A stretch of DNA of 64,000 nucleotides. Origin: Candidatus Bathyarchaeota archaeon (GTDB lineage: Archaea; Thermoproteota; Bathyarchaeia; Bathyarchaeales; Bathycorpusculaceae). The notes beneath the pieces were generated by a model. That model ran no database searches, was not told where the DNA came from, and saw nothing but the letters and a program-made list of their open reading frames with translations. Shown one piece after another: positions 18,659 to 64,000 of this stretch. The first letter of the stretch is position 1; every line of letters starts with the position of its first letter. The translations under genes and the position numbers were made by a program. The DNA lies in NCBI GenBank assembly GCA_963739305.1, contig CAVTZU010000028.1, forward strand, positions 62,443 to 126,442. The letters run 5' to 3'.

Positions 18659-18757
18659 CAAGCCAGCTAAGAAAAGAACCCTCAACACCACATTCTTTTT
18701 CTTTGACAAAGCAACATAGGCAGATTCTTCAATGCATGTTTATCTTAGAAAGTTGAG

Positions 18758-18832
18758 TGGACGGGCCGGGATTTGAACCCGGGACCTCCACGATGCCAAC
18801 GTGGCGATCATACCAGGCTGATCTACCCGCCC
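18758..18832 (-). tRNA. tRNA-Ala(GGC)
   Basis: GGGCGGG acceptor with G3:U70, anticodon arm CCACG-TTGGCAT-CGTGG, T-loop GGTTCAAATCC, discriminator A. Confidence 0.96.
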
Positions 18833-33266: not shown

Positions 33267-34236
33267 TTGTCAAAAGTCACGGTAGTGTCTCATCCAATTC
33301 AAGGTTTGGTCAAATATCACGGTCTCAAAGACCCTTTGAAAAGAATACCTTTTCATGATTCTATATCAGTCTGCGTGGAAGGTCTTGCAACAAGAACCAC
33401 GGTCGAAATAATGGAAAATAATGCTCCCGATTACATTTGGATTAATGGTTTCAGCCTTAAGGGTTCAGCAAGAAGACGCGTTGAACTTGTTCTAAACATA
33501 CTGAGAAGGAAAAGCCCGAACCAAATGCGGGATAAAGATTGTGTCGCAAAACAATATTACTGATGGGAAAGGATTGGGTTTCTCTTCCTCGGGCTTCTCC
33601 GCACTAGGTCTTGCGACAGCCAAAGTATTAGGTCTGAAGCTTGATTCAATCTCGCTGCAGGAGACAGTTAGGCTTGGATCTGGATCTGCGACCAGAAGCT
33701 TGGCGGGTGGCTTTGCTATATGGTATGCGAATAACAATGGGAGATCTTACGCCCAAATGCTAGCCCCTCCTGACGCTGTCCATCTTGGAATCGTCGTTGT
33801 TCCAATCCCAGACAGAATAATCACAGATTCGATCCACCAAGAAATAGAGACCTCGCCTTTCTTTCATTCTCGACTGAAGGTATTGCCTGATTTGATGGAA
33901 TCAATGAAAAAAGCAATATTCAATGATGATGTGGGTGAAATTGGGAGATTGGCAGAACAAGATAGTCTATCTCTTCATGCAGTGACAATGACCACCAGAA
34001 GTGGATGGATACTGATGAAGCCTGAAACAATCCGGGTCATAAATCAGGTGAAAAAATTGAGAAAAAGGGGACTGAATGCTTGGTTTTCGTTGGATACAGG
34101 TCCGTCTGTATTCATCAATACAGTTCCTCAAGAGGCAAAGGAAATCTCGACGCAAATAGAGAGCGAACTAAGACTACGAACGATTGTAAGTGGCATTGGA
34201 GGACCCCCTCAAATATCAACAGACCATCTGTTCTGA
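33267..34236 (+). CDS. mvaD: Phosphomevalonate/diphosphomevalonate decarboxylase, split by one frameshift near 33510
   Basis: HPIQGLVKYHG...RIPFHDSISV, KGLGFSSSGF, RLGSGSATRS..GGF, FSLDTGPSV; removing one A from the A4 run at 33510-33513 joins both ORFs. Confidence 0.85.
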
Positions 34237-34676
34237 AATTGGATCTGATCAGTCTAATTCGCACTGCAGATTGGGTTGTACGACGTCTGATATTGCAGAC
34301 AAGAAGGGCAGATTTGACTTCTGCAACTGTATCAAGAGGCCTGAACTACTCGTAAAACGACAACGTTGACGGCGACGGTGACGGCGTGAACAAGAAATCC
34401 TTGTCAACTCGCGCGTTAGAATTAAGCACCAGCTGGTTTGGTCTTTGATATTTCTTGGTCATGATTGTAACGGGCAACAGAGGATCGCTACCAAACCCTA
34501 CTTGAAATTGAACTGAGTGTCGCCATGAACCCTACCTTTGGTGGCGATGTCTCCCGCAAACCCCTCTTTTTATTTAAAAGTGTTCGCCTGTGAAGGTTGC
34601 GGAATTTCGTTCTAAACATCGTCTGCATAAGCCTTAGCGCGCGCGTAAAGTTTTATCCCAAACCAAAATTGAGGCT

Positions 34677-35414
34677 TCAAACGTAGAGTACGCCAATGCC
34701 AAAACCTTCTTGGTTACTGCTATTGACTATCTCCTTGTGAAAATACCCAGGTTTTATTTCATTCCAAAACTTGTTCACTGCACCTGCCAGTTCTGGGGGA
34801 CCCCTGCAAATATCGTGGAAAGCAATTAAACCGCCTTTGCGTACTAGTGGACTGTACATTTGGAAATCTTTCTTGACGCCTTCGTAAGTGTGATCACCAT
34901 CTATGAAAAGAAAGTCAACTTGTTGATCTTTCAGGATTGATCTCACGGTTGACAAACTGGACGGTGAATGTGAGTCAGCTCGGACCAAGAATATTCGTTG
35001 ATTTCTTTGAGCGAAGTTTGTGAAGAAGGGTATTTTGATATCTTCATATCCTCCTCCAAATTTGCCTTGCGGCAAGTCTAGACTAATTATTCTAGCGTTT
35101 GGGTCTATCATTCGAGTGAAGAGAAACAGTGTTCCTCCTTGAGCTGTTCCGATTTCAAGTATGGTACATATGTTCTGTTCGCTTAGTATAGACAGCAAAG
35201 TCTCGATTTCTTGCTTAATCTGAAAAGGTTCGATTGACCAGCCTATCAAGTTTAGGGGTTTGTGATGAAAAATGTCAAATGTTAGATCCACATAATCCGC
35301 GGGTGTTTTGCATTTTCTTGCTTTCTTACTCAAAACTGAAGAGGCTATTCTCACTCTGATTCCACAAATGTCAAACTTGCCAAGATTAATTTCACGATTA
35401 AATGGAAGTTTCAT
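34677..35414 (-). CDS. Class I SAM-dependent methyltransferase (Methyltransf_24-like)
   Basis: LEIGTAQGGT, FLFIDGDHTYEGVKKD, GGLIAFHD; start set at ATG 35414 because the longer ORF overlaps the next gene. Confidence 0.85.
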   Translation of the reverse strand: MKLPFNREINLGKFDICGIRVRIASSVLSKKARKCKTPADYVDLTFDIFHHKPLNLIGWSIEPFQIKQEIETLLSILSEQNICTILEIGTAQGGTLFLFTRMIDPNARIISLDLPQGKFGGGYEDIKIPFFTNFAQRNQRIFLVRADSHSPSSLSTVRSILKDQQVDFLFIDGDHTYEGVKKDFQMYSPLVRKGGLIAFHDICRGPPELAGAVNKFWNEIKPGYFHKEIVNSSNQEGFGIGVLYV

Positions 35415-35472
35415 TCCGAAAACAAAAGTGGACGAGTTTCCTTTTAAGGGTTTTTTCTTATGGTTTTGCCAA

Positions 35473-35486
35473 TTAGCGCGCGCTAA
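35473..35486. promoter_or_regulatory. Perfect 14-bp palindrome TTAGCGCGCGCTAA
   Basis: Lies between the divergent methyltransferase and ligase genes; half-site copies recur nearby. Confidence 0.45.
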
Positions 35487-35674
35487 GAAGAAAAGGTTCC
35501 TCAAGTTGTCTTGATAGTAGGATCTCACATTCACGCATACCAATAATGTTAAGAGATGCATGTCTTCGAAAAGTAGAATGAATGATGGATAAGGTGATCT
35601 AATTACCGAACATTTTTTCCGAAAGCTACGAAAGCATCTATTCGCGTGCTCGTATTTTACATAATCTGCGAATA

Positions 35675-36940
35675 TTGCAAAGAAACACATGGTTGTCTTC
35701 TTCTGAATTGGAAAGGATGCAAACGAAAAAACTCCGGAGTATTTTGGAATATGCATATGAAAACGTTGCTTTTTATCATCAGAGGTTTAATATGGCGAAA
35801 GTTAAGCCGAGTGACATAAAATCCTTAGAAGATCTGCCCAAGATTCCAATTCTTACAAAATCAGAGGTCCGAAATAATTCTAACTCTCTTATTTCAAAGG
35901 GAGTTATAAAAGAACTATGCAAGAAGGAAGAGACTTCGGGCACAACTGGCATCTCCTTATCCATTATCGCTGAGAAAAGAGTGTCCTATATCATGGCAGC
36001 AAACAAGTTAAGACACTACGTAGAAAATGGGGGAAAATTATTTAGAGACAGATATGTCGTCCTTCTCCCATCATTCAGGCCCCTCAGAGGGACCTATCTG
36101 GGTGTTCTTCTTAGAAAGTTAGGAATCCTAAGAAGGGTTGATTTGAATACCCGGTATCCGATAGAAGGCATAATTGACAGGTTAGTTGACTTTAAGCCAG
36201 AAGTAATTGACAGCTATCCGAGTTTCCTTCTCCTATTAGCGAGGGAACTAGAAAAAAAAGGAAATGCGATTCAACCAAGACTTGTTTTTGTTAGTGGAGA
36301 GCTCCTCGATGCTAGGAGTCGAAAGCTGATCAATTCTTCGTTCGAAACTGAGATGTTTGACACATACGGCTGTACAGAAGCGGGATTCATCGCTTGGGAA
36401 TGCTCTGAACATGCTGGTTACCATACCAATGTGGACCTAGTGGTTGCTGAGTTTGTAAAGGATGGCGAACAAGTTGCAGCGGGAGAGTCTGGTGAGATCA
36501 TTCTCACGCCACTCTGGAACTTTGCTATGCCGTTGATAAGGTATAAAGTCGGTGACATTGGCACACCAAGCGGTGAAAGTTGCCCATGTGGAAGAGGACT
36601 ACCTTTAATGAAGGTATTAGAAGGGAGATTTGAGGATCTCATAATATTGCCAACTGGTAGAATAATTTCTCCTCTCGTCATTTCATGTTATTTTGAAGGC
36701 ATTGAGGGAATAACTGAGTACAGAGTAATTCAAGAAAAAACAGATGACTTCATTGTACAAATTGCATTAAAGGAAGGTTACGGAGATGACACGCTTCTTC
36801 AAATCAGAGACAGATTCATGAAAGGGTTAGGGGAAGACATAACGATCAACTTCGAGGTTGTTGACACCATACCAAGAGATGGTAAACTCCGGCGCATAGT
36901 CTCTAAGTGCCTCCCCCGAGAACGCTTTTTCTCCATTTAG
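35675..36940 (+). CDS. Phenylacetate-CoA ligase (PaaK/CapK)-like adenylating enzyme
   Basis: AYENVAFY, TSGTTG, YPSFL, SGELL, DTYGCTE, PLIRYKVGD, EGR. Confidence 0.88.
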   Translation: MQRNTWLSSSELERMQTKKLRSILEYAYENVAFYHQRFNMAKVKPSDIKSLEDLPKIPILTKSEVRNNSNSLISKGVIKELCKKEETSGTTGISLSIIAEKRVSYIMAANKLRHYVENGGKLFRDRYVVLLPSFRPLRGTYLGVLLRKLGILRRVDLNTRYPIEGIIDRLVDFKPEVIDSYPSFLLLLARELEKKGNAIQPRLVFVSGELLDARSRKLINSSFETEMFDTYGCTEAGFIAWECSEHAGYHTNVDLVVAEFVKDGEQVAAGESGEIILTPLWNFAMPLIRYKVGDIGTPSGESCPCGRGLPLMKVLEGRFEDLIILPTGRIISPLVISCYFEGIEGITEYRVIQEKTDDFIVQIALKEGYGDDTLLQIRDRFMKGLGEDITINFEVVDTIPRDGKLRRIVSKCLPRERFFSI

Positions 36941-37059
36941 CTCGTGGTCAATGTATGCTAAACAGCTAAGAGTGAATAATGGACGCGCAATTTTGAGAAA
37001 CATAGCATGAGTCTTCATTGTTCCTTTTCTGTTCTATAAGAGAGTTCCAGAAGGAATAT

Positions 37060-37239
37060 ATGAACAAACTAGTTGTAATAACAGTCATGAAAACTGACCT
37101 TGCTATTAGAATACGACATGGTTGGACAAAAGACGAAAATGAGCACGCAGCGAAACCTAAGGTAACCACCTGCGGCGGCGGAGGATGCGGATGCGGAACT
37201 GGATGCTCATTTTCGCAAGTGACTGAAAAAACACGCTAG
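37060..37239 (+). CDS. Putative RiPP (TOMM/LAP) precursor peptide
   Basis: 59 aa from ATG 37060 or 50 aa from ATG 37087; charged leader then TTCGGGGCGCGTGCSFS; 16 bp from the SagB stop. Confidence 0.8.
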   Translation: MNKLVVITVMKTDLAIRIRHGWTKDENEHAAKPKVTTCGGGGCGCGTGCSFSQVTEKTR

Positions 37240-37255
37240 TAGAATGTCCTGATCG

Positions 37256-38038
37256 TCACCTTCCAATTGCAGCCATGTACAAAGTCGATTCAACATTACC
37301 ATCGAGACCTAACAAATCGTTGAGTTGGTTATCGGAGAAGCCGCCGATTGAACAACACTCTAAGCCCAACGCAGTTGAGATCAAGTAGATATTTTGCATA
37401 AGATGGCCTGCCTCGAACAGAACATACCGATACCCTCGTTCTCCATATTTTGTCTCTGTCCTCTCAAATACCGCGCTAATTACACAGATAAAAGCAGCGT
37501 TACGCGTCCAATCCTGATTGTTTAAACAAGTACTGAACTCCTTTGCGTTGCTATTCGCCTTAGTTTGTTCGAGCGATTGCGATTTAACATTGAAATGATA
37601 TACGCCGTTCTTCAACTTTTTCACGTGAAATGATATAACGTAAACTTCCAATGGATAACGTGCTCCTGCTGAGGGATAAGCACGAAGCTCTGATAGATCC
37701 GTTCCTTCAACAGTGTGTGTAATTCCTGCTGAGCACAGTAAGACGGTAGCAACGTCTCTCAGCGTGACTGCTTTCCCAACAAAATCCCTTTGTGATCTGC
37801 GGCGGTCAAGAACCTCGTAAAATGGTAGTGAACATTGTATTACATCGCGCGCGCGTGACAAGCCAATTTGCTTAAACCTTGGATACGATTTGTAGCTAAT
37901 TTCTTTCCACTCGAGAGGCCATTCAACAATATCTATTTCGGCACTTGGAATGAAAAGCTTCGTATTTTCATGAAAGATTTTGGAAAGCGAAATTTTTTTA
38001 TTGTTCGCACTAAACTCATTAGAAAACATAGTTATCAC
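37256..38038 (-). CDS. SagB/ThcOx-family FMN-dependent azoline dehydrogenase
   Basis: FHENTK, RRRSQRDF, RAYPSAGARYPLEVY, KYGERGYRY, EAGHLMQN. Confidence 0.93.
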   Translation of the reverse strand: MITMFSNEFSANNKKISLSKIFHENTKLFIPSAEIDIVEWPLEWKEISYKSYPRFKQIGLSRARDVIQCSLPFYEVLDRRRSQRDFVGKAVTLRDVATVLLCSAGITHTVEGTDLSELRAYPSAGARYPLEVYVISFHVKKLKNGVYHFNVKSQSLEQTKANSNAKEFSTCLNNQDWTRNAAFICVISAVFERTETKYGERGYRYVLFEAGHLMQNIYLISTALGLECCSIGGFSDNQLNDLLGLDGNVESTLYMAAIGR

Positions 38039-39373
38039 AGAAATGGATGGGGGATGGGATTTAACCTTTCTTGTGCATCAGCCTTTTTGTGCCCCAAAGT
38101 TTCAGGCACATTTCTTAAACGGCTGCCACCCCAATACCTGAATCTTTCATCCAGGTACAGTGGTTGAAGTTCCGGCATTACAACCTTCACCACCCTCAAC
38201 CCTAGTTCCTCAACGTCAAGAGTCGTAACGTCAACATAATAACATGCTTGATTGCGTTCTCGTAGGATTTTCAGGCATGTTTTAAGTTTGTCGCTCTTTC
38301 CCTTTTTTTTATTACGAAGATTACCACTCAGTGGTTTTTTCTTTGCGCCCAAGAGAAATGATAATTTGGGAATCATCGATACATCGGACCATAATAGTCC
38401 TCTCTGTTCAAGATTGCTGATGTTTTCCCACTTGGGGTCCGTTGTAGGGGGCTTTACAGTTTTGTCTTGTTTTAGTGTACGCAGCCAATGCCTTGATTGT
38501 TGAGATTCCTCCATGCATCCTAAAATTGCTTCTTCTGCGTTAAGACTTGCTTTTGCTCCAACTGAAATTGCCGGTCCGACCCCAGTTCTGTCTATCAGCA
38601 GACATAAGAAGACAGGTATAGGAATGTCTGTAGTTATATCGTATACGTAAACTTCCAAATTTGCATCCCTGAATCGTGTTAGAAGCGTTCCAATAAGATT
38701 ATCATTTAAAGAAGAAAGGTCAACAAGCGGGGAAGATAATTTATTAAGATAGGTGATGATGAATGCGTCCCTTTCGACAACTTCGCAGATCCCACGGTAC
38801 AAGGCATCGGAGATGTCCAACCCTGCTGCTGCACCTGTTGTTATTGGCAATCTGATTATGGGCTCATTGTGACCGTATATGTAGGGCACGTGAACCAATT
38901 GTGCGGGTAGAAGTCTTTCTGAATCATCGAAAACAGAATGGCTAGAAACCCAATTGAATTGTGAATGTCCATCGAAAAGGAATCTAGCATACTTTTCTTG
39001 TCGCCTTTGATTCTCTGAAGGACCGACTACCGTGAATGGATCTATAGCACGCTCTGATCCAAGTTCATTATATGAGGCTTTTGTGAGATTCTCTTCGAAA
39101 TATATAGAGAGGCAGTATCTTTCGATAGCTTCTCCTATTGCCTTAACCTTCCCTCTTTCTTCGTTAATCGATGTGCCACCCACAGTTTCTTCTTTTATTC
39201 CTCCTGTACTAAAGACAGTGGTATTGCAGATTTCGGATGCATAGTTAAAAAGTCTGGGCTCATCATCATAAGTTGGTGCCCTGTACAACTTGCGGATAAT
39301 GCCGATTCTTGGATTTATTATGTGCCAAACAAGGTTTAGAAAGCTTTTTTCCTTGTCGTCTTCCTGTGCTCAA
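38035..39373 (-). CDS. YcaO cyclodehydratase (D protein); N-terminus apparently frameshifted near 39345
   Basis: KAIGEAIERY, TTGAAAG, GICEVVERDA, C-terminal PIPHPFL; in-frame IINPRIGII upstream of 39288 implies the TTG 39373 start. Confidence 0.93.
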
Positions 39374-39375
39374 TG

Positions 39376-40453
39376 TCAAGAGTCAGCTTCCTTTCTTTTT
39401 CCGCAAGTAGGGCAGTTAGGAACCTTTAGCAGACGATCCACACTTAAACTGTACGTTTTGAAATTTACGTGGAGAACTCCCGACAATGTGGCTGGGTCAC
39501 TATACTTTCCTAAGTACTTGAGAGCCTCTAAAGTCGTTAAGCCTGCTATGATGTCCGCAAAGGGGCTTATTAGTCCAAGTTGCTTCTCGTCTGACATGAG
39601 CTGTTCTTGATATGCAGTATAAAGCTCGATGTCGTCTATGTTTGATTTGATCCTGAGGATAATAGCAATCGAAACATGGAGACATGTAAGGAATGACGGT
39701 AGGACCCACTTCACCATGGTCCTCGTAAACTGCGGTATTTAACCACGGTTTACCTTGAGTAACGCACATGCGATTCAGCGACGATCGGTACAGTAAGGAT
39801 CGATTTTCAGAACAACAAACTACAAGATCGACAAGATTTAGGCAATCTAAGAATTGCTTATCTGACAAGTCAGCTTTAACCCAATGGAGTTCAGTTTTGT
39901 CTGAAACTATTGAACGCAGTGCTTCGCCGCGTTGGGTACCAGCATCACGATTTGTGTATGGACCTAACTCGATGTCTGCTGGTCCAACTTCTTTTGAGTC
40001 AGATGCGAACAGCTTTCCTACGCCATTAAGTGCCAGAGAAGAAGCGACCCTAGAGCCAACAGCGCCAAGTCCTACCAAAAATACGGAGGAATTCTTGAGT
40101 CTTTTTGTAGGCTCATACATCTTAGAGTAATTACCAATCGAGGCAAAGTAGAGTGTTTTCAAAGTATTAGCATTAATGTCATTTTGAGAAAGTTTAAAGT
40201 GGTTCACGTTGTCATCATCAAATACTATTGAATTATCGCTTAAGAATCGAATAATGGATTTAACACGCTCTTTGGGATACTTGGTTAACCTAAGAATCTC
40301 CTCAAAATCATGTTTACCATCAAGAAAAGGCAACAGTTTTTCGAGTAAACCTACCGATTTACCATGGACTTCAACTATCTTATCCCCGCATATGAAATAA
40401 AGGCTACCGTGTTTTCTGACAACTGTAAAATACAAAGGGATTTTTGGCTTCAA
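39376..40453 (-). CDS. RRE plus ThiF/E1-like leader-binding C protein, split by one frameshift near 39661
   Basis: N-terminal LLPFLDGKH..EEI (wHTH RRE-like), VGLGAVGS, GPTVIP..SPCFDC, C-terminal PNCPTCG; deleting one T gives continuous CFDCYILRIKSN. Confidence 0.87.
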
Positions 40454-40650
40454 ACCTGAATCTCCAAGTCAAGGTCAACTGAAAAATACTTACCTTACTC
40501 GGAATATACTTCTTTCGTTAGCGCGCGCGTTTCTGGCAACAACGGCGAGTATGGCTTTCCGCGCTCGATATTCAGCGACGTTACTATCATGGCGGAGTTG
40601 GCTTTAATTAGTTCCTTTCGCATCTGCGATGTATTCAAGAGGTCCCTTAA

Positions 40651-41235
40651 ACGTTCGCAATTGGCCACTTCGCTTTGGGATACATAACGGGAAAGGGCTG
40701 TTCAAAGCTTGCCAAAGTCAAAGCGAACTTGCCACTTCTGCTTGCAGCTTCGGTTCTTCCAGATGTTGATCTGCTACTGCGTTTCCTTATGCACCGGGGA
40801 CCTACGCACTCATTCATCACCATAACCGTACTGATGATTCCGTTTTTTATTGTTTATCGCAAGCAAGCCATCCCGTATTACGCGGCTTTGCTTTCTCACA
40901 TTCTCATAGGCGATTTTTTCACCGGAGGGGTCGAGCTGTTCTGGCCACTGTCCCAAAATTGGTTCGGAGCTTTAAACATTGAAGTAACTAGCCTAACTAA
41001 CGTTATTGCGGAGCTTGTCCTTTTCTTCTTAACCTTGCCGATCATGTACAAGCTGGGCGAATTGCAAACTCTTTTGAAGCCGCACAACAAGAACTGGGCT
41101 CTAATAATCCCACTAGGTGCAGTTCTCGGACCTTTGCTTACGGTTGGTCGAGGCCAAGAATATGCTCTTCCAACCCTCCTTGTGGTTCCGAGCCTGTTCT
41201 ATATCAGGTCTGTTTGCATATTCCATGTTTGTTGA
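40651..41235 (+). CDS. YdjM-like membrane-bound metal-dependent hydrolase (possibly damaged)
   Basis: GH at the N-terminus, LPDVD, HRGPTHS, SHILIGD, LFWP; expected start reads ACG at 40651 and the C-terminus shifts frame near 41205. Confidence 0.75.
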   Translation, partial: TFAIGHFALGYITGKGCSKLAKVKANLPLLLAASVLPDVDLLLRFLMHRGPTHSFITITVLMIPFFIVYRKQAIPYYAALLSHILIGDFFTGGVELFWPLSQNWFGALNIEVTSLTNVIAELVLFFLTLPIMYKLGELQTLLKPHNKNWALIIPLGAVLGPLLTVGRGQEYALPTLLVVPSLFYIRSVCIFHVC

Positions 41236-41399
41236 ACTTCGAGCTGAGCACAATCAGGACGCAGACAAGCTACAATCTCGCTCGCGCACGCGTAGCGCGG
41301 CGTTATTCAAATACAAACTCGAGAAAAGTCTCTACATATCTTCCAAGTTTTTTTGGCGTTTGTTGATGATATATCAACTAATATTCCACTCAAGTCGCG

Positions 41400-41457
41400 T
41401 ATCTAGTTTTAATATACGACAGCCTCTAATTTGTTAATCGTACAATAAAACTAGATA
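41400..41457. repeat. 20-bp inverted repeat (18/20 match)
   Basis: TATCTAGTTTTAATATACGA 41400-41419 / TCGTACAATAAAACTAGATA 41438-41457. Confidence 0.65.
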
Positions 41458-41737
41458 TGACTAGTAGGGCGCGCGCGACAATGTTTCATTACTACTCGTG
41501 CAGGATGTTCTAAGTTCCAGAGAGCTCACTTACCAGTTAGCGCGTGCCCCCACGTACTTATCACAGTTTAATGCATTGAATTCGATCGATCGAATCGTGC
41601 CATCGCGTTAGCGCGCGCGATCACCCGCCACGGATACGTGACAACGACGTTCTTGAACACATATCTGACAAGACTATCACAACCGCACTACCTGAACTAC
41701 AAAGAATAGATACGCTCTGCTTCCGCTGGGCCGAGTG

Positions 41738-46958: not shown

Positions 46959-48030
46959 TCAGTGAGGTGGTGAGGCGCGGCTGTTTGAAGGTTGGTTCTT
47001 CATCTTTCTGGAAGACAGTTTGCAGAGGAGATTCAACGCGTTTTTTTCTTCATCCGTGTTTCTGGTTTGAATGATCTTGGCTTTCTCGGCGCTTGAAAAA
47101 AGTTCTTCGCCTCTCTCGGATCGAACTACGACGAAGCTCCATCCTTCCAAGCCTAGGCCTCCGACTGAAATGTCTGCGAGTTCGGAGCTGAAGTCGGAAC
47201 AGGATATGCAGCTTTTTCTAGCGTATTTCTTGACTTCGGTTAGGGGAAGAGTGAGGATTTGTCCATTCTTCATGGTTATGATCATTTTTCCCTTTATGTT
47301 GATCTTGATGATGTCTTTCAGATTTAGTCCGAGTTCTCTGTGAAGGTGCTTCTCAACGAGTGTTTCGAAATCAAAGCATTCTGAACACATGAGGCCTATG
47401 AGGAGTTTCACTGAATTATACTTCTTCAATCCTGCCAACTGCATCTTCCTAATAGCGTTGATTTGGCAAGGTGTTCCTACGAAAGCTAGGTCAGTGCTCT
47501 TTTCTGCAACGGGTGCTAGTGCGAGAAGATTCGGGGAATAGGAGTACCTGGTTCCTGCGCAGGCCAAGATTTCTGCGGAGCTTGATGCAACCTTTGGAAC
47601 TGGGTATAAGGGCCTGGTCGGGTCGACGCCAGAAACGACGGCACGGCGGAAATGTAGCCTGTTTTCAAGCCATGAACTAGAAGTGCGGTGACGACGCCGC
47701 CGTCTTGAGCAAGACGTCGTATTTCTTTTCGGTTGCTCGAGCCGCAATGGTTCGTCGATAGACTCCGAACAGTTCCTCTTTTCTGCGTTCTCTGCCGAAT
47801 GATAGTCTTTCCGTTTTTGATGGTGACCACTCGTATTGAGAACAGACTTTGGGACAGAGGCCGCATTCTTTGCATTCTTCTACTAGGCTTGGCTTTGTTT
47901 GGATGAAAGAAAGAGATCTGTAAGGGCAAGCGATAATGCACGCGCGGCACTCGACGCATCTGTCGTTGTCTACAACGTCACGTTGCAGGGTGTTCTGAAA
48001 GCTCCGTTCAGATGAGTTCATGTTCATCAA
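46959..48030 (-). CDS. Coenzyme F420 hydrogenase/dehydrogenase beta-subunit family with 4Fe-4S domain, multiply frameshifted
   Basis: CVECRACIIACP, CKECGLCPKVC, AQDGGVVTALL, VGTPCQI, IGLMCSE, ADISVG spread over three frames. Confidence 0.85.
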
Positions 48031-48038
48031 ACCTTTCC

Positions 48039-49330
48039 TTAGGTTGATGCGCGCTTTCGAGTTTTGAATTGCGCCACTTTTTCAGCTGCTCCCAAGACAG
48101 GGCTTACCATTTTTGAGACGAAGCCCATTCCTGCGAACATGATTCTGAGGCTGTTTATGTCTGCTGAATAGACTGCGCCGATGAGAGGAGCGGTGACCAC
48201 GTATACAGTGAGGAAAACGGCAAGGCCGACTATAAGTCTTATCCAGTTCGTTGGCAGAAGAGTGGCTGGTAAGTATGCGATGATAGCTGCTGTTGTGGAG
48301 GCTGCGAGGATTTTGGCTGAGGATTGGAAGTCGGCTTTCGCTTGGTAATGCTTCCATATCCAGTATAGTGCCCAAATCATGCTGGGAATTCCGGATAGGA
48401 TTCCTGCTATAATGAGGCCTGTTATTCCATACATGGAAATGAGCGCAATACCTAGTGGAAGGCCTATTATGAAGGTGATTATACTTTGATACATGGGTAT
48501 TCTCGTTTTTCCTAGGCCAGTCAGGAGACCACCTGCGCTGATGCTTCCGATGGCGACAAAGAGGTTTCCGGTGACCATTATGGTTAGGAAGAGCGGTCCG
48601 TAAACGTATTTTTCTCCGTAGAGTGCGCCGATGATCGGTCCTGACACAGCCATTAGAATCATGGTTGCTGGCACAAGTAATATGGAGGCGTATTTTGTTG
48701 AGGATGCGAACACGGCTTTTAAGAGGTCATGTTCGTTCTCTGGGTTGAGTTTTGAGAATGCTGGGAACAGGACTGTTCCTATGGGGATGCTGAGGAAGGT
48801 TAGAAGGACCGCGAAGTTTGAGGCTGTTAGGTAGTTGCCGTACATCGAGTTGGTGGTCAAGGGGACTATCATGAAGGCGTATACTTGGGTGAGGACGCCG
48901 CCTAGGCTAGATGAAATCGAGAGAGGCACTCCGTAGCTTAGCATGGTTCTGAGAGTTCGGGTTATGTTGGTTCCTTTTGTTACCTTCTTTCTTAAAGGCC
49001 TGAGGAGGATAATGTAGAATGTTGTTAGCCCGATGATCGCTGCGGCAACGACGGACAATGCGTTTCCAAGGACTGCTCCGAGGACGCTGTAGCCTAGAAA
49101 GACGAGTACGGGGCCTATAGCTGTTTTTGTGATAGCTTGACAGATGAGCGTGAAGCTGTTGAGTTTCATTCTTTCAAAGCCTATGAATACGGCTTGAGAT
49201 GCTGCGAGGATTGCGCCTGCAACGATTGAGACCGACATCATAGCTATGTAGGATGCAGATTCTGGTCTTTGGAAGATTGTTGAAGCGATAAACGTTGCGA
49301 GGAAGAGGGCCAGGAATGCTGGCCTGGATG
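48039..49330 (-). CDS. Wzx-like oligosaccharide flippase, 5' end cut off at the junction
   Basis: Multi-TM MOP-fold pattern, YGNYLTA..F, VLFPAFS, LYGEKY; the ORF-track N-terminus comes from the foreign sequence. Confidence 0.82.
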
Positions 49331-49845: not shown

Positions 49846-51523
49846 CTATTGCGGCAGGCGCCGCACCTCGCCCCTGCCACGAGGGTCTGACGCGGCGTCC
49901 CAGCCATCCGGCGTGCGCACGATCATCTGCACATCCCCCACGGCCAGTCGTTGTTCGACCCTGTAGCCGCGTTGCCGCAAGGCATCGATCGTGGCTGCAG
50001 GAAGTTCGCCGTCATACGTGATGAGGTCCGCCGGCAGGCCTGGTGGTGGAACCGCGGGGCGGCCACGGCCTGCTGCGTCGTCATCCCGTAGTCGACGACG
50101 TCGACGAGGCCTGCAACACGCCGGTGATGATCGTCGAGCCGCCGGGGAGCCGACCACGATCGGAACCTTCCCTCCGATCGAGCAGGATGGTGGGCGTCAT
50201 CGAGGACAGCATGCGCTTGCCCGGCTGGATCGCGTTGGCATCGCCCGCGAGCAGCCCGTACAGGTTCGGCATGCCGGGTTTGGCGCTGAAGTCGTCCATC
50301 TCGTTGTTGAGCAGGAACCCGGCGCCGCCGACGACGAGGCCGCTGCCGAAGTCCGCCGTTCAACGTGTATGTGATCGCGACGGCGTTGCCCTCGCGGTCG
50401 ACGATCGAGTAGTGCGTCGTGTGGCGCGCTCGGCGGACCGGCGCCCGACGCTCGTCGGCGCGGCGCGATCGACTGCGGATTCCCGCGCGCAGCGCGTGCG
50501 CGTACGCTTGGTCGTGAGCCGCTCGATCGGCACCTGACGAAGTCCGGGTCGCCGAGCAGTCGTTCGCGGTCGGCGTAGACGCGCGGCGCATCGCCTCGCG
50601 ACCAGGTGCGTGTAGCTGCGCCGAGTGCCACAGGCGCGGCGAGGTCCTCAGCCCGCGCGTCGATCATGCCCAGCAACTGCGGCAGCGCACGCCGCCCGAG
50701 CTGGGGGGCGGCATGCCGACACATGACTGGCCGCGGTAGCGTGCGCGGAGGGCTCGCGCCACGTGGGCCGGTAGGCGGCAGGTCGCTCGCGCGTGATCAG
50801 GCCGCCGCCCGCTGCATCTCGGCGACGACCAGGTCGGCGGTCCGCCCGCGGTAGAAGTCGTCGACCGCCCTTCTGGATGCGCGCAGGGTCCGCAAGGGTG
50901 GGCTGGCGAAAAGTTTCACCGGCCTGAAGCGTGCCGAAGTGCGCCACGAAATTCGTGCCGGCGAATCGGGCTTCTTCCGCTGCAGCCCGTTCGGCCAGCA
51001 ATGCGGAACGACGAAACCCTGATCTGCAGCGGACCGCGGGTGCTACGACCGCGCCCAGGATAACCTGCCAAACCTGCTGTGCGCCTCCCACAGGCCCGCG
51101 ACGTACCGGGTACGCCACTGCGCGATGTCCAGTGAGGCTCAGGTCGTCGATCACATTGCCGGCCGCGTCGAGGTACATGTCGCGCGTCGCGGCGGCCGGC
51201 GCCGCCTCGCGGTAGTCGAGGAACGTGGCAGCGCCGTCAATCCAGGCCAGCATGAACCCGCCGCCGCCGAGGTTGCCGGCCTCCGGATATGTCACCGCGA
51301 GCGAGAAGGCGCCGGCGACGGCCGCGTCCACCGCATTGCCGCCGGCGCCGAGGATGTTCGCGGCAACGGCGGCGCTGAACGAATCCGGCATGGCCACCGT
51401 ACCGCCGCGGCCAGCCTGGGCGGTGGCCGTGGGTGCCTGAGCGGGTTGTCGCGCCGGAGCGCCGGCGCACGCCGACAGCAGCGCAACGATGACCAGCAGC
51501 AGGGAGCGGCGAAACTTGTCCAT
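49846..51523 (-). CDS. ggt: Gamma-glutamyltransferase, many frameshifts
   Basis: GGNAVDAAVA, GNLGGGGF, DYREAAP, HTTHYSIVD, MDDFS, PGKRMLSSMTPT, SDPRG. Confidence 0.9.
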
Positions 51524-63631: not shown

Positions 63632-64000
63632 CCTGCAACCGGGCTGATTGCGGCTCGTCGGGCACCGTCGGATCGCGGTCGACCAGATCTACGTCGTGCA
63701 GGTCGCGTTTTGGATTCCTTGACGACCCGGGTGTTGAGCGGCCGGATCGTGTCGATCCGGCACGTGCTCCGGCTGCCGGCGACGCCACTTCTCTGGACCA
63801 CGACGCTGTCGAATCCCGCCGCGACCCGGCCGCTGCGAGTGGTGAGGCCGATCGACGACGCGAACGCCATGTCGGGACATGGATTCGTCATTTCCAGCAG
63901 GAACCCACGATTGCTGCTGGGCCAGACCGTCAGCGCGCTGTCGCCGATCGCTCGCCAACCCCACAGCCGCCCGGGGCTGTGGAAGCTGCGGACGGGCTCG

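Follow-up and report, generated by a model that had tools for sequence, protein, structure and literature searches.

Background

The enzyme sets McbBCD of microcin B17 and SagBCD of streptolysin S each combine an E1-like C protein, a YcaO protein (D) and a flavin mononucleotide (FMN) dehydrogenase (B), which act on a Gly/Cys/Ser-rich core placed behind a leader. Here we describe a locus of the same composition in a stretch of 64,000 nucleotides (hereafter, the window) from a Candidatus Bathyarchaeota archaeon (GenBank assembly GCA_963739305.1, contig CAVTZU010000028.1, positions 62,443 to 126,442), and we consider it likely, on a prediction from its genes, that this locus is a cassette for a linear azol(in)e-containing peptide (LAP; thiazole/oxazole-modified microcin, TOMM). 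It differs from the two sets above in its archaeal host and in a C protein that falls under the SagC cut-off and is closer to MccB; moreover, the CPBP-type or ABC export/immunity set is missing, while a PaaK-like and a YdjM-like gene are present. MccB (microcin C7) and PaaA (pantocin A) resemble this C protein in that a peptide-binding N-terminal domain is joined to an E1-like domain with a zinc-type CxxC pair, but those enzymes are catalytic alone, whereas the C family of the window lacks the NLxRQ stretch and is coupled to a YcaO. There is also a likeness to the cyanobactin (PatE-type) precursors, since a related precursor (locus L008) has two cores with repeated flanking stretches and the nearest solved YcaO proteins are cyanobactin heterocyclases; in contrast to cyanobactin systems, neither PatA/PatG-type proteases nor a macrocyclase were found, C is not fused to D and the window precursor has a single core.

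The LAP clusters of candidate phyla radiation (CPR) bacteria consist of a YcaO, a nitroreductase and a peptidase (Sharrar et al. 2020, PMC7298704). They lie within the same set of YcaO relatives as our locus, and 30 of 79 related loci have an M16 peptidase as in the CPR type, whereas the window cassette lacks an M16 peptidase and encodes a ThiF-like C protein separately. Predicted archaeal TOMMs include the haloazolisins of Halobacteria, with fused, truncated cyclodehydratases and Ser-rich cores, and the thermoacidophisins of Sulfolobus, with Tyr/Gly-rich precursors and a noted horizontal spread (Cox et al. 2015, PMC4603692). The window cassette is, like them, an archaeal, uncharacterised and predicted azole-peptide cluster, and the published descriptions set it apart by its discrete C and D proteins, its intact recognition element for peptides that are made on ribosomes and then modified post-translationally (RiPPs; RiPP recognition element, RRE) and its Cys/Gly-rich core. 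In 2025, 11,644 archaeal genomes were surveyed with antiSMASH, and RiPP clusters related to YcaO were reported from Asgard, TACK and DPANN archaea (PMC12144867); predicted archaeal YcaO RiPP clusters are, as a kind, already known from surveys (PMC4603692, PMC12144867). According to the 2025 survey, the functional characterisation of archaeal RiPPs is limited to lanthipeptides (PMC12144867). No archaeal azole-containing RiPP is known to have been characterised so far. Our full-text literature searches found no azole cluster described in Bathyarchaeia, while the supplementary tables of PMC4603692 and PMC12144867 may list such clusters.

Results and discussion

The cassette and its enzymes

The source genome of the window (G000; 2.3 Mb) has a completeness of 97.1% and an estimated contamination of 7.82%. 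The cassette covers 5.8 kb and six genes (ORF, open reading frame; aa, amino acids):

35485..41275, both strands: exchanged cassette; from left to right, PaaK-like and precursor genes (+), SagB, YcaO and C genes (-), YdjM-like gene (+)
37060..37239, + strand: putative precursor peptide gene, 59 aa; ORF with ATG at 37060 and a GAAGGA stretch upstream
37256..38038, - strand: SagB-type FMN dehydrogenase (B protein), 260 aa, intact; TIGR03605, PF00881
38035..39373, - strand: SagD-type YcaO cyclodehydratase (D protein); TIGR03604; frame broken at about 39363-39366
39376..40453, - strand: C protein with RRE-like and E1/ThiF-like domains; PF00899; frame broken at about 39657-39660
35675..36940, + strand: PaaK-like adenylate-forming ligase; NCBIfam matches below cut-off; PDB 4r1l
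40675..41437, + strand: YdjM-like membrane protein; PF04307; frame broken at about 41205

An earlier examination of the window by its letters alone (the sequence-only reading) had described a tightly coupled minus-strand operon of C, YcaO and SagB genes, ending 16 bp from a small convergent ORF with a Cys/Ser/Thr/Gly core. This is confirmed here by the coordinates: the SagB and YcaO genes overlap by 4 nt, the C stop lies 2 nt from the YcaO start after frame restoration, and the stops of the precursor (37239) and SagB (37256) genes converge with 16 bp between them. The extent that it had assigned to the unit (37060-40453) does contain those genes, but the full exchanged unit is larger (35485-41275) and takes in the PaaK-like and YdjM-like genes; the latter is divergent from the C gene, and the cassette homology stops inside it, at 41275.

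A counterpart of the cassette (L004) was found within a 438-kb contig of a same-genus Candidatus Bathyarchaeota archaeon metagenome-assembled genome (MAG; G005). There, the C protein (358 aa) is encoded in one open frame and the YcaO (445 aa) begins with a GTG 2 nt past the C stop; the set also comprises SagB, the precursor within an 84-codon ORF, a PaaK-like ligase of 445 aa and an intact YdjM-like protein of 206 aa. The whole arrangement, small ORF included, is kept in independent contigs, and this conservation, together with the matches over curated cut-offs presented below, excludes chance. The ratios of nonsynonymous to synonymous substitution rates (dN/dS) between window and L004 were 0.19 for YcaO, 0.20 for both the PaaK-like and the YdjM-like genes, 0.21 for C and 0.22 for SagB; therefore, the five enzyme genes have been under purifying selection for essentially all their divergence. 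A scan of 35300-41500 for bacterial-type promoters and terminators, uninformative for an archaeon, returned 11 and 4 matches, respectively, against shuffle means of 12.7 and 5.4.

The longest open frame of the window YcaO (38035-39288, minus strand, 417 aa) scored 271.4 bits with TIGR03604 (cut-off 219.25) and 210.3 bits with PF02624, and the intact L004 protein was likewise over the TIGR03604 cut-off (274.3 bits). The start codon in the window is a TTG at 39373-39371. The ATP-binding Glu motifs and the Pro-rich tail that the sequence-only reading had pointed out were located as GEAIERY and EVVERD (two ExxER) and as the C-terminal PIPHPFL, and across 29 aligned family sequences the residues E81/E84/R85 and E197/E200/R201 do not vary, nor does a C-terminal P-H-P-F-L. 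According to a recent preprint, a PxPxP C-terminus is canonical for azoline-forming YcaO proteins (bioRxiv 10.1101/2025.07.11.664356). The nearest solved relatives in the PDB were TruD, MusD and LynD, all azoline-forming cyanobactin heterocyclases. No further YcaO is present in G000.

The SagB-type protein scored 149.7 bits with TIGR03605 (cut-off 78.4) and 91.3 bits with PF00881, and its PDB relatives include McbC (E 6e-14); PF02624 and TIGR03605 are among the profiles that the sequence-only reading had suggested as checks. The Lys-Tyr motif that it had noted was found as K197-Y198 within KYGERGYRY. The claim that C, D and B make up a thiazole/oxazole synthase set is upheld by a YcaO over the SagD-family cut-off whose solved kin form azolines. 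As a separate observation, G000 has a second SagB-type gene (G000:C20:144700-145206, L115) with a TIGR03605 score over cut-off (131.7 bits), which adjoins an M29 aminopeptidase gene and no YcaO.

The C gene of the window is read in two frames, one of 317 aa (39500-40453; PF00899, 80.2 bits) and one of 113 aa (39376-39717), the latter scoring 40.7 bits with TIGR03603 and 25.6 bits with TIGR03882, each under the cut-off. The intact L004 C protein, however, passes TIGR03882, the TOMM leader-binding model (42.4 bits versus 36.9). In sequence comparisons with solved proteins, MccB was best (E 1.9e-20, residues 27-353 versus 25-349), followed by MoeB, UBA5 and ThiF. These matches uphold the description of an RRE/ThiF-like C protein given by the sequence-only reading. 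RREs have the order strand-strand-strand-helix-helix-helix, and an AlphaFold2 model of the L004 protein (mean predicted local distance difference test score, pLDDT, 75.2) shows strands at residues 10-14, 17-22 and 25-29 and then helices at 32-43, 50-57 and 61-73 (pLDDT 66-89 over residues 10-73), with the E1-like domain after them. Foldseek searches with the model placed MccB first (E 3.3e-22), then PaaA (8.8e-17), ThiF and MoeB, and LynD (1.2e-14), and VIA-align gave Z 26.2 for MoeB and Z 25.8 for MccB over model residues 1-351.

Where MoeB and MccB carry NLxRQ, this protein reads ADIELG, and the stretch is replaced throughout the six aligned family members; the Gly loop is kept in four of the six and lost in two, while the two CxxC pairs are invariant. 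All ThiF/MoeB equivalog models score far under cut-off. The replacement of NLxRQ and the losses of the Gly loop fit a non-catalytic scaffold, and we believe that this is probably a divergent, non-catalytic C protein with an RRE-like N-terminal domain.

The precursor peptide

The small ORF extends over 37018-37239 (plus strand) and, from the ATG at 37060, encodes 59 aa ending in ...KPKVTTCGGGGCGCGTGCSFSQVTEKTR. It can be divided into the leader MNKLVVITVMKTDLAIRIRHGWTKDENEHAAKPKV, the core TTCGGGGCGCGTGCSFSQ, which is preceded by KPKV, and the follower VTEKTR. The 18 residues of the core include 4 Cys, 3 Thr, 2 Ser and 7 Gly. Alignment of the homologues of window, L004 and L007 showed 42 invariant columns, all of them confined to leader, follower and the C-G-C-G part, and cores that differ in length and sequence: TTCGGGGCGCGTGCSFSQ in the window, ANCGGGCGCGGGFSPA in L004 and ANCGGGCGCGSSP in L007. 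Between window and L004 the core indels amount to 6 nt and 3 nt, in frame, and a further in-frame variant on a metagenome contig is shorter by 3 nt and 12 nt. The dN/dS of the precursor (window versus L004) was 0.46.

A fourth, partial precursor was found at a contig end (L008:1557-1724), beside a YcaO 79% identical to that of the window. It has two cores (...VKLKV-ATCGCGCSFSPE-TTKDDDEHTVKLKV-ATCGCSFSP-VTEKAR); the spacer between them repeats the C-terminal ...DEH..K-L-K-V stretch of the leader, and a T-[EK]-K stretch follows each core. These repeats suggest that K-[PL]-K-V is an N-terminal cleavage or recognition site and that the stretch after the core serves for recognition on the C-terminal side, in the manner of multi-core cyanobactin precursors. 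The four related precursors thus share the leader, and their cores, doubled in one case, differ by in-frame indels. With its conserved leader and hypervariable in-frame core, the small ORF behaves as a RiPP precursor.

The gene is single-copy in G000. A search of 5.8 billion proteins matched only the window and L004 peptides (2 of 2 candidates), which says little because short ORFs are often uncalled, and comparison with NCBIfam and Pfam gave no credible family. Cys-rich small ORFs also adjoin the C, D and B genes of the related loci L009, L010, L083, L065 and L014.

Related YcaO loci

Among 5752 candidates, 577 YcaO relatives were found at E <= 0.001, which outside the close group are 36-50% identical; the few named ones belong to Promethearchaeota, Aenigmarchaeota, Methanocellales and Patescibacteria. 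We compared 81 related loci, of which 80 are metagenome contigs and one belongs to Saccharibacteria. SagB directly follows YcaO in 76 of them, and a C-like gene was detected by tblastn in 11. When only the 79 loci with a near-complete YcaO are counted, 30 have an M16 peptidase, 11 a C protein and 8 neither despite enough flank, the remaining 30 being too short. Pfam searches found ThiF domains beside L009, L010, L018 and L083, and M16 peptidases beside L024, L027, L031 and L047; the 30 M16-type loci (these last four and 26 others) consist of a YcaO-SagB pair with no ThiF-like gene by tblastn.

In a quick tree with Shimodaira-Hasegawa-like approximate likelihood ratio test (SH-aLRT) support, the YcaO proteins of window, L004, L006 and L007 came together on a long, fully supported branch. 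All 13 C-partnered YcaO proteins fell into one 25-row group with those of Promethearchaeota and Aenigmarchaeota (SH-aLRT 91, not firmly resolved), apart from most M16-type ones.

Exchange and genomic place

The window (35485-41275) and L004 (4013-9796) matched in a single blastn segment of 5798 columns and 91.1% identity, with no similarity beyond it within L004. Core DNA of the two genomes, sampled over 20 kb of the window with the tRNA set apart, is only 66-78% identical, and therefore the cassette was exchanged recently. These results show that it moves between lineages as a 5.8-kb unit. Of 61 genomes of the same order, only G000 and G005 had the YcaO (90% identity), that is, one of the 10 other genomes of the genus and none of the 50 from other genera. 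Class-wide, 2 of 401 genomes, G000 among them, exceeded the TIGR03604 cut-off and 6 of the 401 had a match at E <= 1e-20, so that SagD-type YcaO proteins are rare in the class.

The other over-cut-off genome (G270), from a different Bathyarchaeia family, contains at C2:383624-387700 (L118) an unrelated pair of a ThiF-like protein and a SagD-type YcaO (TIGR03604, 244.7 bits), the latter 26% identical to the window YcaO, and a SagB fragment lies at the edge of that locus.

The flanks of L004 matched the FrhB (47008-47820, 86.8%) and flippase (48109-48646, 72%) genes of the window. In G005 the cassette and a 551-aa gene stand between the FrhB and flippase genes, while in G000 these two are adjacent and the cassette, in the same orientation, is 5.7 kb beyond FrhB. 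A quite different chromosomal place in G005 was considered and ruled out, as each copy is close to these flippase and FrhB genes, the one to one side of FrhB and the other to the other. The surroundings in both genomes include glycosyltransferase, methyltransferase and flippase genes, and hence look like a variable cell-surface locus. The cassette has a GC content of about 42.5%, versus 47% for the genome, and in tetranucleotide usage it is mildly atypical, correlating with the genome at r 0.765 (8th percentile among 358 genome chunks), versus 0.87 and 0.90 for its flanks. No integrase or transposase domain was found among the flanking ORFs scanned, and no tRNA gene in L004; the only one in the window is a tRNA-Ala at 18757-18832.

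Co-transferred genes

The PaaK-like ligase gene lies 119 bp upstream of the precursor gene and in the same direction, and adjoins it in all three contigs that reach that far (window, L004 and L007). Its NCBIfam scores were all under cut-off (DVU_1553-family ligase 155.7 bits, FlxY 137.9 bits, PaaK 122.8-126.0 bits), and its PDB relative is the phenylacetate-CoA ligase 4r1l (E 6e-26). The conserved frame reaches back to 35603, where the TTG start of L004 is a TTA in the window (35603-35605) and the following 24 codons are kept; the true start may be the TTG at 35675 shared with L004. The YdjM-like protein scored 47.3 bits with PF04307, and a sequence search found no solved relative for it.

One-base insertions

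Base-by-base alignment of window and L004 showed eight gaps: three single-base ones in coding sequence, the two in-frame ones of the precursor core and three intergenic ones. The extra bases of the window are at about 39660 (C), 39366 (third/fourth codon of YcaO) and 41205 (YdjM-like gene). The sequence-only reading had reported two indels, in C and YcaO; both are present in the sequence and were located against the intact homologue, but the third, in the YdjM-like gene, had been missed.

We then compared the window (37000-40500) with contigs from four public peat/sediment metagenome runs (X1-X4), which are mostly 88-99% alike to it and represent relatives, the same strain being unproven. At about 39657/39660, the depth of contigs with the deletion equalled the total depth in all runs (5.23 of 5.23 in X1, 11.3 of 11.3 in X2, 28.9 of 28.9 in X3 and 7.37 of 7.37 in X4). 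The same was true at about 39363/39366 (11.7 of 11.7 in X1, 29.3 of 29.3 in X2 and 24.1 of 24.1 in X3), the X4 contig ending at the site. Since the bridging contigs are relatives, they only show that the insertions are peculiar to this assembly. Contig cover was low over the core region in X2-X4 and was not used as evidence. Among the runs listed for the locus there was no RNA run.

Further along, GC jumps at about 49250 from some 47% to some 67% and stays there to the contig end (window position 64000); in this stretch tetranucleotide usage correlates with the rest of the genome at -0.11, long ORFs give way to many short overlapping ones and a gamma-glutamyltranspeptidase gene is split at 50591/50648. 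This part looks like a chimeric join to the DNA of another organism, and such a tail indicates local assembly trouble. Split genes near the cassette are a diphosphomevalonate-decarboxylase (MVD)-like gene (33267-34236), the FrhB gene (46959-48030) and the gamma-glutamyltranspeptidase gene (49923-51523). In the first of them, positions 2-77 of MVD-like_N are in one ORF and 87-153 in the next; in the FrhB-like gene, the Fer4 N-terminus is in a separate frame.

Proposed pathway and alternatives

On the basis of family membership, the following route can be proposed for the LAP/TOMM cassette. The 59-aa precursor would be made, and its leader of about 35 aa bound by the RRE-like N-terminal domain of the C protein, which would present the Cys/Gly core to YcaO for ATP-driven cyclodehydration of the four Cys, and possibly of Ser/Thr, to azolines. 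The SagB flavoprotein would oxidise these to thiazoles or oxazoles, with a loss of about 20 Da per ring. Cleavage following the conserved K-[PL]-K-V would remove the leader, and trimming of the follower ([VT]-T-[EK]-K) is probable, the YdjM-like membrane hydrolase being one candidate protease. The PaaK-like ligase may, speculatively, add a further modification. The polyazole peptide and the Bathyarchaeia host proposed by the sequence-only reading are in line, respectively, with the predicted SagD-type YcaO, SagB, RRE-containing C protein and cognate precursor, and with a same-genus MAG that holds the cassette and flanks of host-typical composition.

Several observations weigh against a working azole cassette of this kind. 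In this assembly, the C and YcaO genes are out of frame. The frequency of split-ORF signatures, by a crude and noisy heuristic that counted 415 events across G000, was similar in this genome (1.76 per 10 kb; 1.94 Mb) and in G001 (1.87; 300 kb) and G005 (2.0; 100 kb), and all nine control genes at 13-29 kb of the window (about 8.2 kb) aligned full-length and in one frame with the ORFs of relatives; the genome is thus not generally frameshifted, and the breaks could be real. With the SagC-family model TIGR03603 the intact C protein scores 67.1 bits, far under the cut-off of 187.65, and MccB and PaaA, the solved proteins nearest to it, are enzymes with catalytic activity. A complex prediction for C protein and precursor scored 0.44 (runs of 0.37, 0.48 and 0.44; best control 0.00), with a contact agreement of at least 54% and a partner pLDDT of at least 42 across runs. 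Of 80 solved complexes, 58 also reach the mark that it reached, as do 2 of 110 mismatched pairs; at scores of 0.60 or less, only 7 of the 80 do so, together with both passing mismatches. In addition, the pass may reflect likeness, because the MccB-MccA and LynD-leader complexes are already solved. The prediction lends weak support to the pairing of C protein and precursor. Lastly, a PaaK-like gene occurs in 3 and a YdjM-like gene in none of the 81 related loci, so the roles given to them here are guesses, and protease, transporter or immunity genes of recognised type were not seen in the cassette.

If the insertions are real, the cassette would be freshly inactivated in this strain, which would produce no azole peptide though its relatives do. 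We regard this as a serious alternative that nonetheless falls short of an even chance. Homopolymer slips do not account for the insertions, frameshifts are not general in the assembly, the cassette is accessory and lost or absent in most relatives, and other split genes are near (MVD-like at 33.5 kb and FrhB at 47.7 kb). Nevertheless, a dN/dS of about 0.2 and the lack of in-frame stops or deletions mean that no decay has accumulated, all three coding indels are single-base insertions inside 1.9 kb, every bridging metagenome contig (from relatives 88-99% alike) is without the extra base, and the chimeric high-GC tail from about 49250 points to local assembly trouble. As the insertions are absent from the relative and the bridging contigs and dN/dS is about 0.2, they must be either assembly errors or very recent decay; for the three insertions themselves, consensus error appears somewhat the better explanation, and very recent inactivation has a chance not far below one half.

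Other alternatives concern the chemistry and the origin of the segment. The ThiF-like protein might be an active E1-type enzyme, similar to MccB or PaaA, that modifies the precursor by chemistry beyond or instead of azoles. Its best solved matches are indeed MccB and PaaA over the full length, it retains the Gly-rich loop GLGAVG and it has a Glu aligned to MoeB residue 130, which we take to be the catalytic Asp of that enzyme. We nonetheless think this unlikely, given the replacement of NLxRQ in six of six family members, the loss of the Gly loop in two of six, the passing of the TOMM leader-binding model TIGR03882 and the translational coupling with a SagD-type YcaO, an arrangement shared with split C/D cyclodehydratases. 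It is highly improbable that the YcaO carries out backbone thioamidation or amidine formation instead of azoline formation. Members of the family presumably share an ATP-dependent activation of amides, and the McrA-thioamidation model TIGR03266 (methanogenesis marker 1) gives a non-zero match, but its 86.5-91.3 bits in window and L004 are far under the cut-off of 365, while TIGR03604 is passed; TfuA (PF07812) was absent from the profile search of G000 (97.1% complete), and the adjacent SagB, the Cys-rich core and the invariant PxPxP-type C-terminus also speak for azolines. The same two results (86.5 versus 365 bits; PF07812 unmatched) agree with the claim of the sequence-only reading that TfuA is missing and that this is not the methyl-coenzyme M reductase (MCR) thioamidation system of methanogens. 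We find it similarly hard to credit that the segment is non-archaeal, as a mis-binned or chimeric bacterial (for instance, CPR) fragment. The contig does bear a foreign tail of 67% GC, genome contamination is 7.82%, the YcaO clade includes Patescibacteria and Saccharibacteria sequences and the cassette has about 42.5% GC in a 47% genome. Against this, the flanks (29-35.4 kb and 41.3-49.2 kb) are host-typical in tetranucleotides (r 0.87 and 0.90), the same cassette, in a same-genus MAG that was assembled independently, lies between flippase and FrhB homologues within a contig of 438 kb, and the 13 C-partnered YcaO proteins group, not firmly, with those of Promethearchaeota and Aenigmarchaeota (SH-aLRT 91).

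Within the azole-cassette interpretation, a wider proposal is conceivable, though we hold it only tentatively and would sooner doubt it: a new archaeal LAP subclass would make short polythiazoles from cyanobactin-like precursors, sometimes with several cores set between repeated recognition sequences, with tailoring (e.g. acyl capping or C-terminal activation) by the PaaK-like ligase, whose gene would be transcribed together with that of the precursor, and processing or export by the YdjM-like protein, and would be carried as a 5.8-kb unit in variable cell-surface loci of sediment and peat Bathyarchaeia. What is known of TOMM chemistry is not changed by the cassette. Its features of note are the archaeal host, the signs of a recent exchange, a core that is hypervariable and in some cases duplicated, and the two genes that were transferred along with it and lack an explanation. 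It also shows that Bathyarchaeia lineages whose sampled core DNA is otherwise only 66-78% identical exchange natural-product genes. As a compact six-gene set with an unambiguous cognate precursor and an intact copy in a relative, it is a practical candidate for heterologous expression.

Repeats around the cassette

Short repeats around the cassette were considered as terminal repeats and rejected as unconvincing. The arms (35476-35495 and 40509-40528) contain a motif that is present 67 times genome-wide and is not conserved in L004. The motif, TTAGCGCGCGC, matched six times in the window, always within 7 kb around the cassette (shuffle mean 1.58; none of 100 shuffles reached six), at 34634, 35473/35476 (palindrome TTAGCGCGCGCTAA), 40518, 41537 (one mismatch) and 41608, among 67 copies in the 2.3-Mb genome. 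The ligase-precursor unit and the C-D-B unit each have copies upstream, but L004 does not keep the copy at 40518. In G005, a different stretch that is some 50 nt long and immediately adjoins the cassette border on its outer side (L004:3839-3889), contains the palindrome ATATTTGGATCCAAATAT and is not a tRNA, recurs with 92-98% identity in at least seven places on six contigs of G000.

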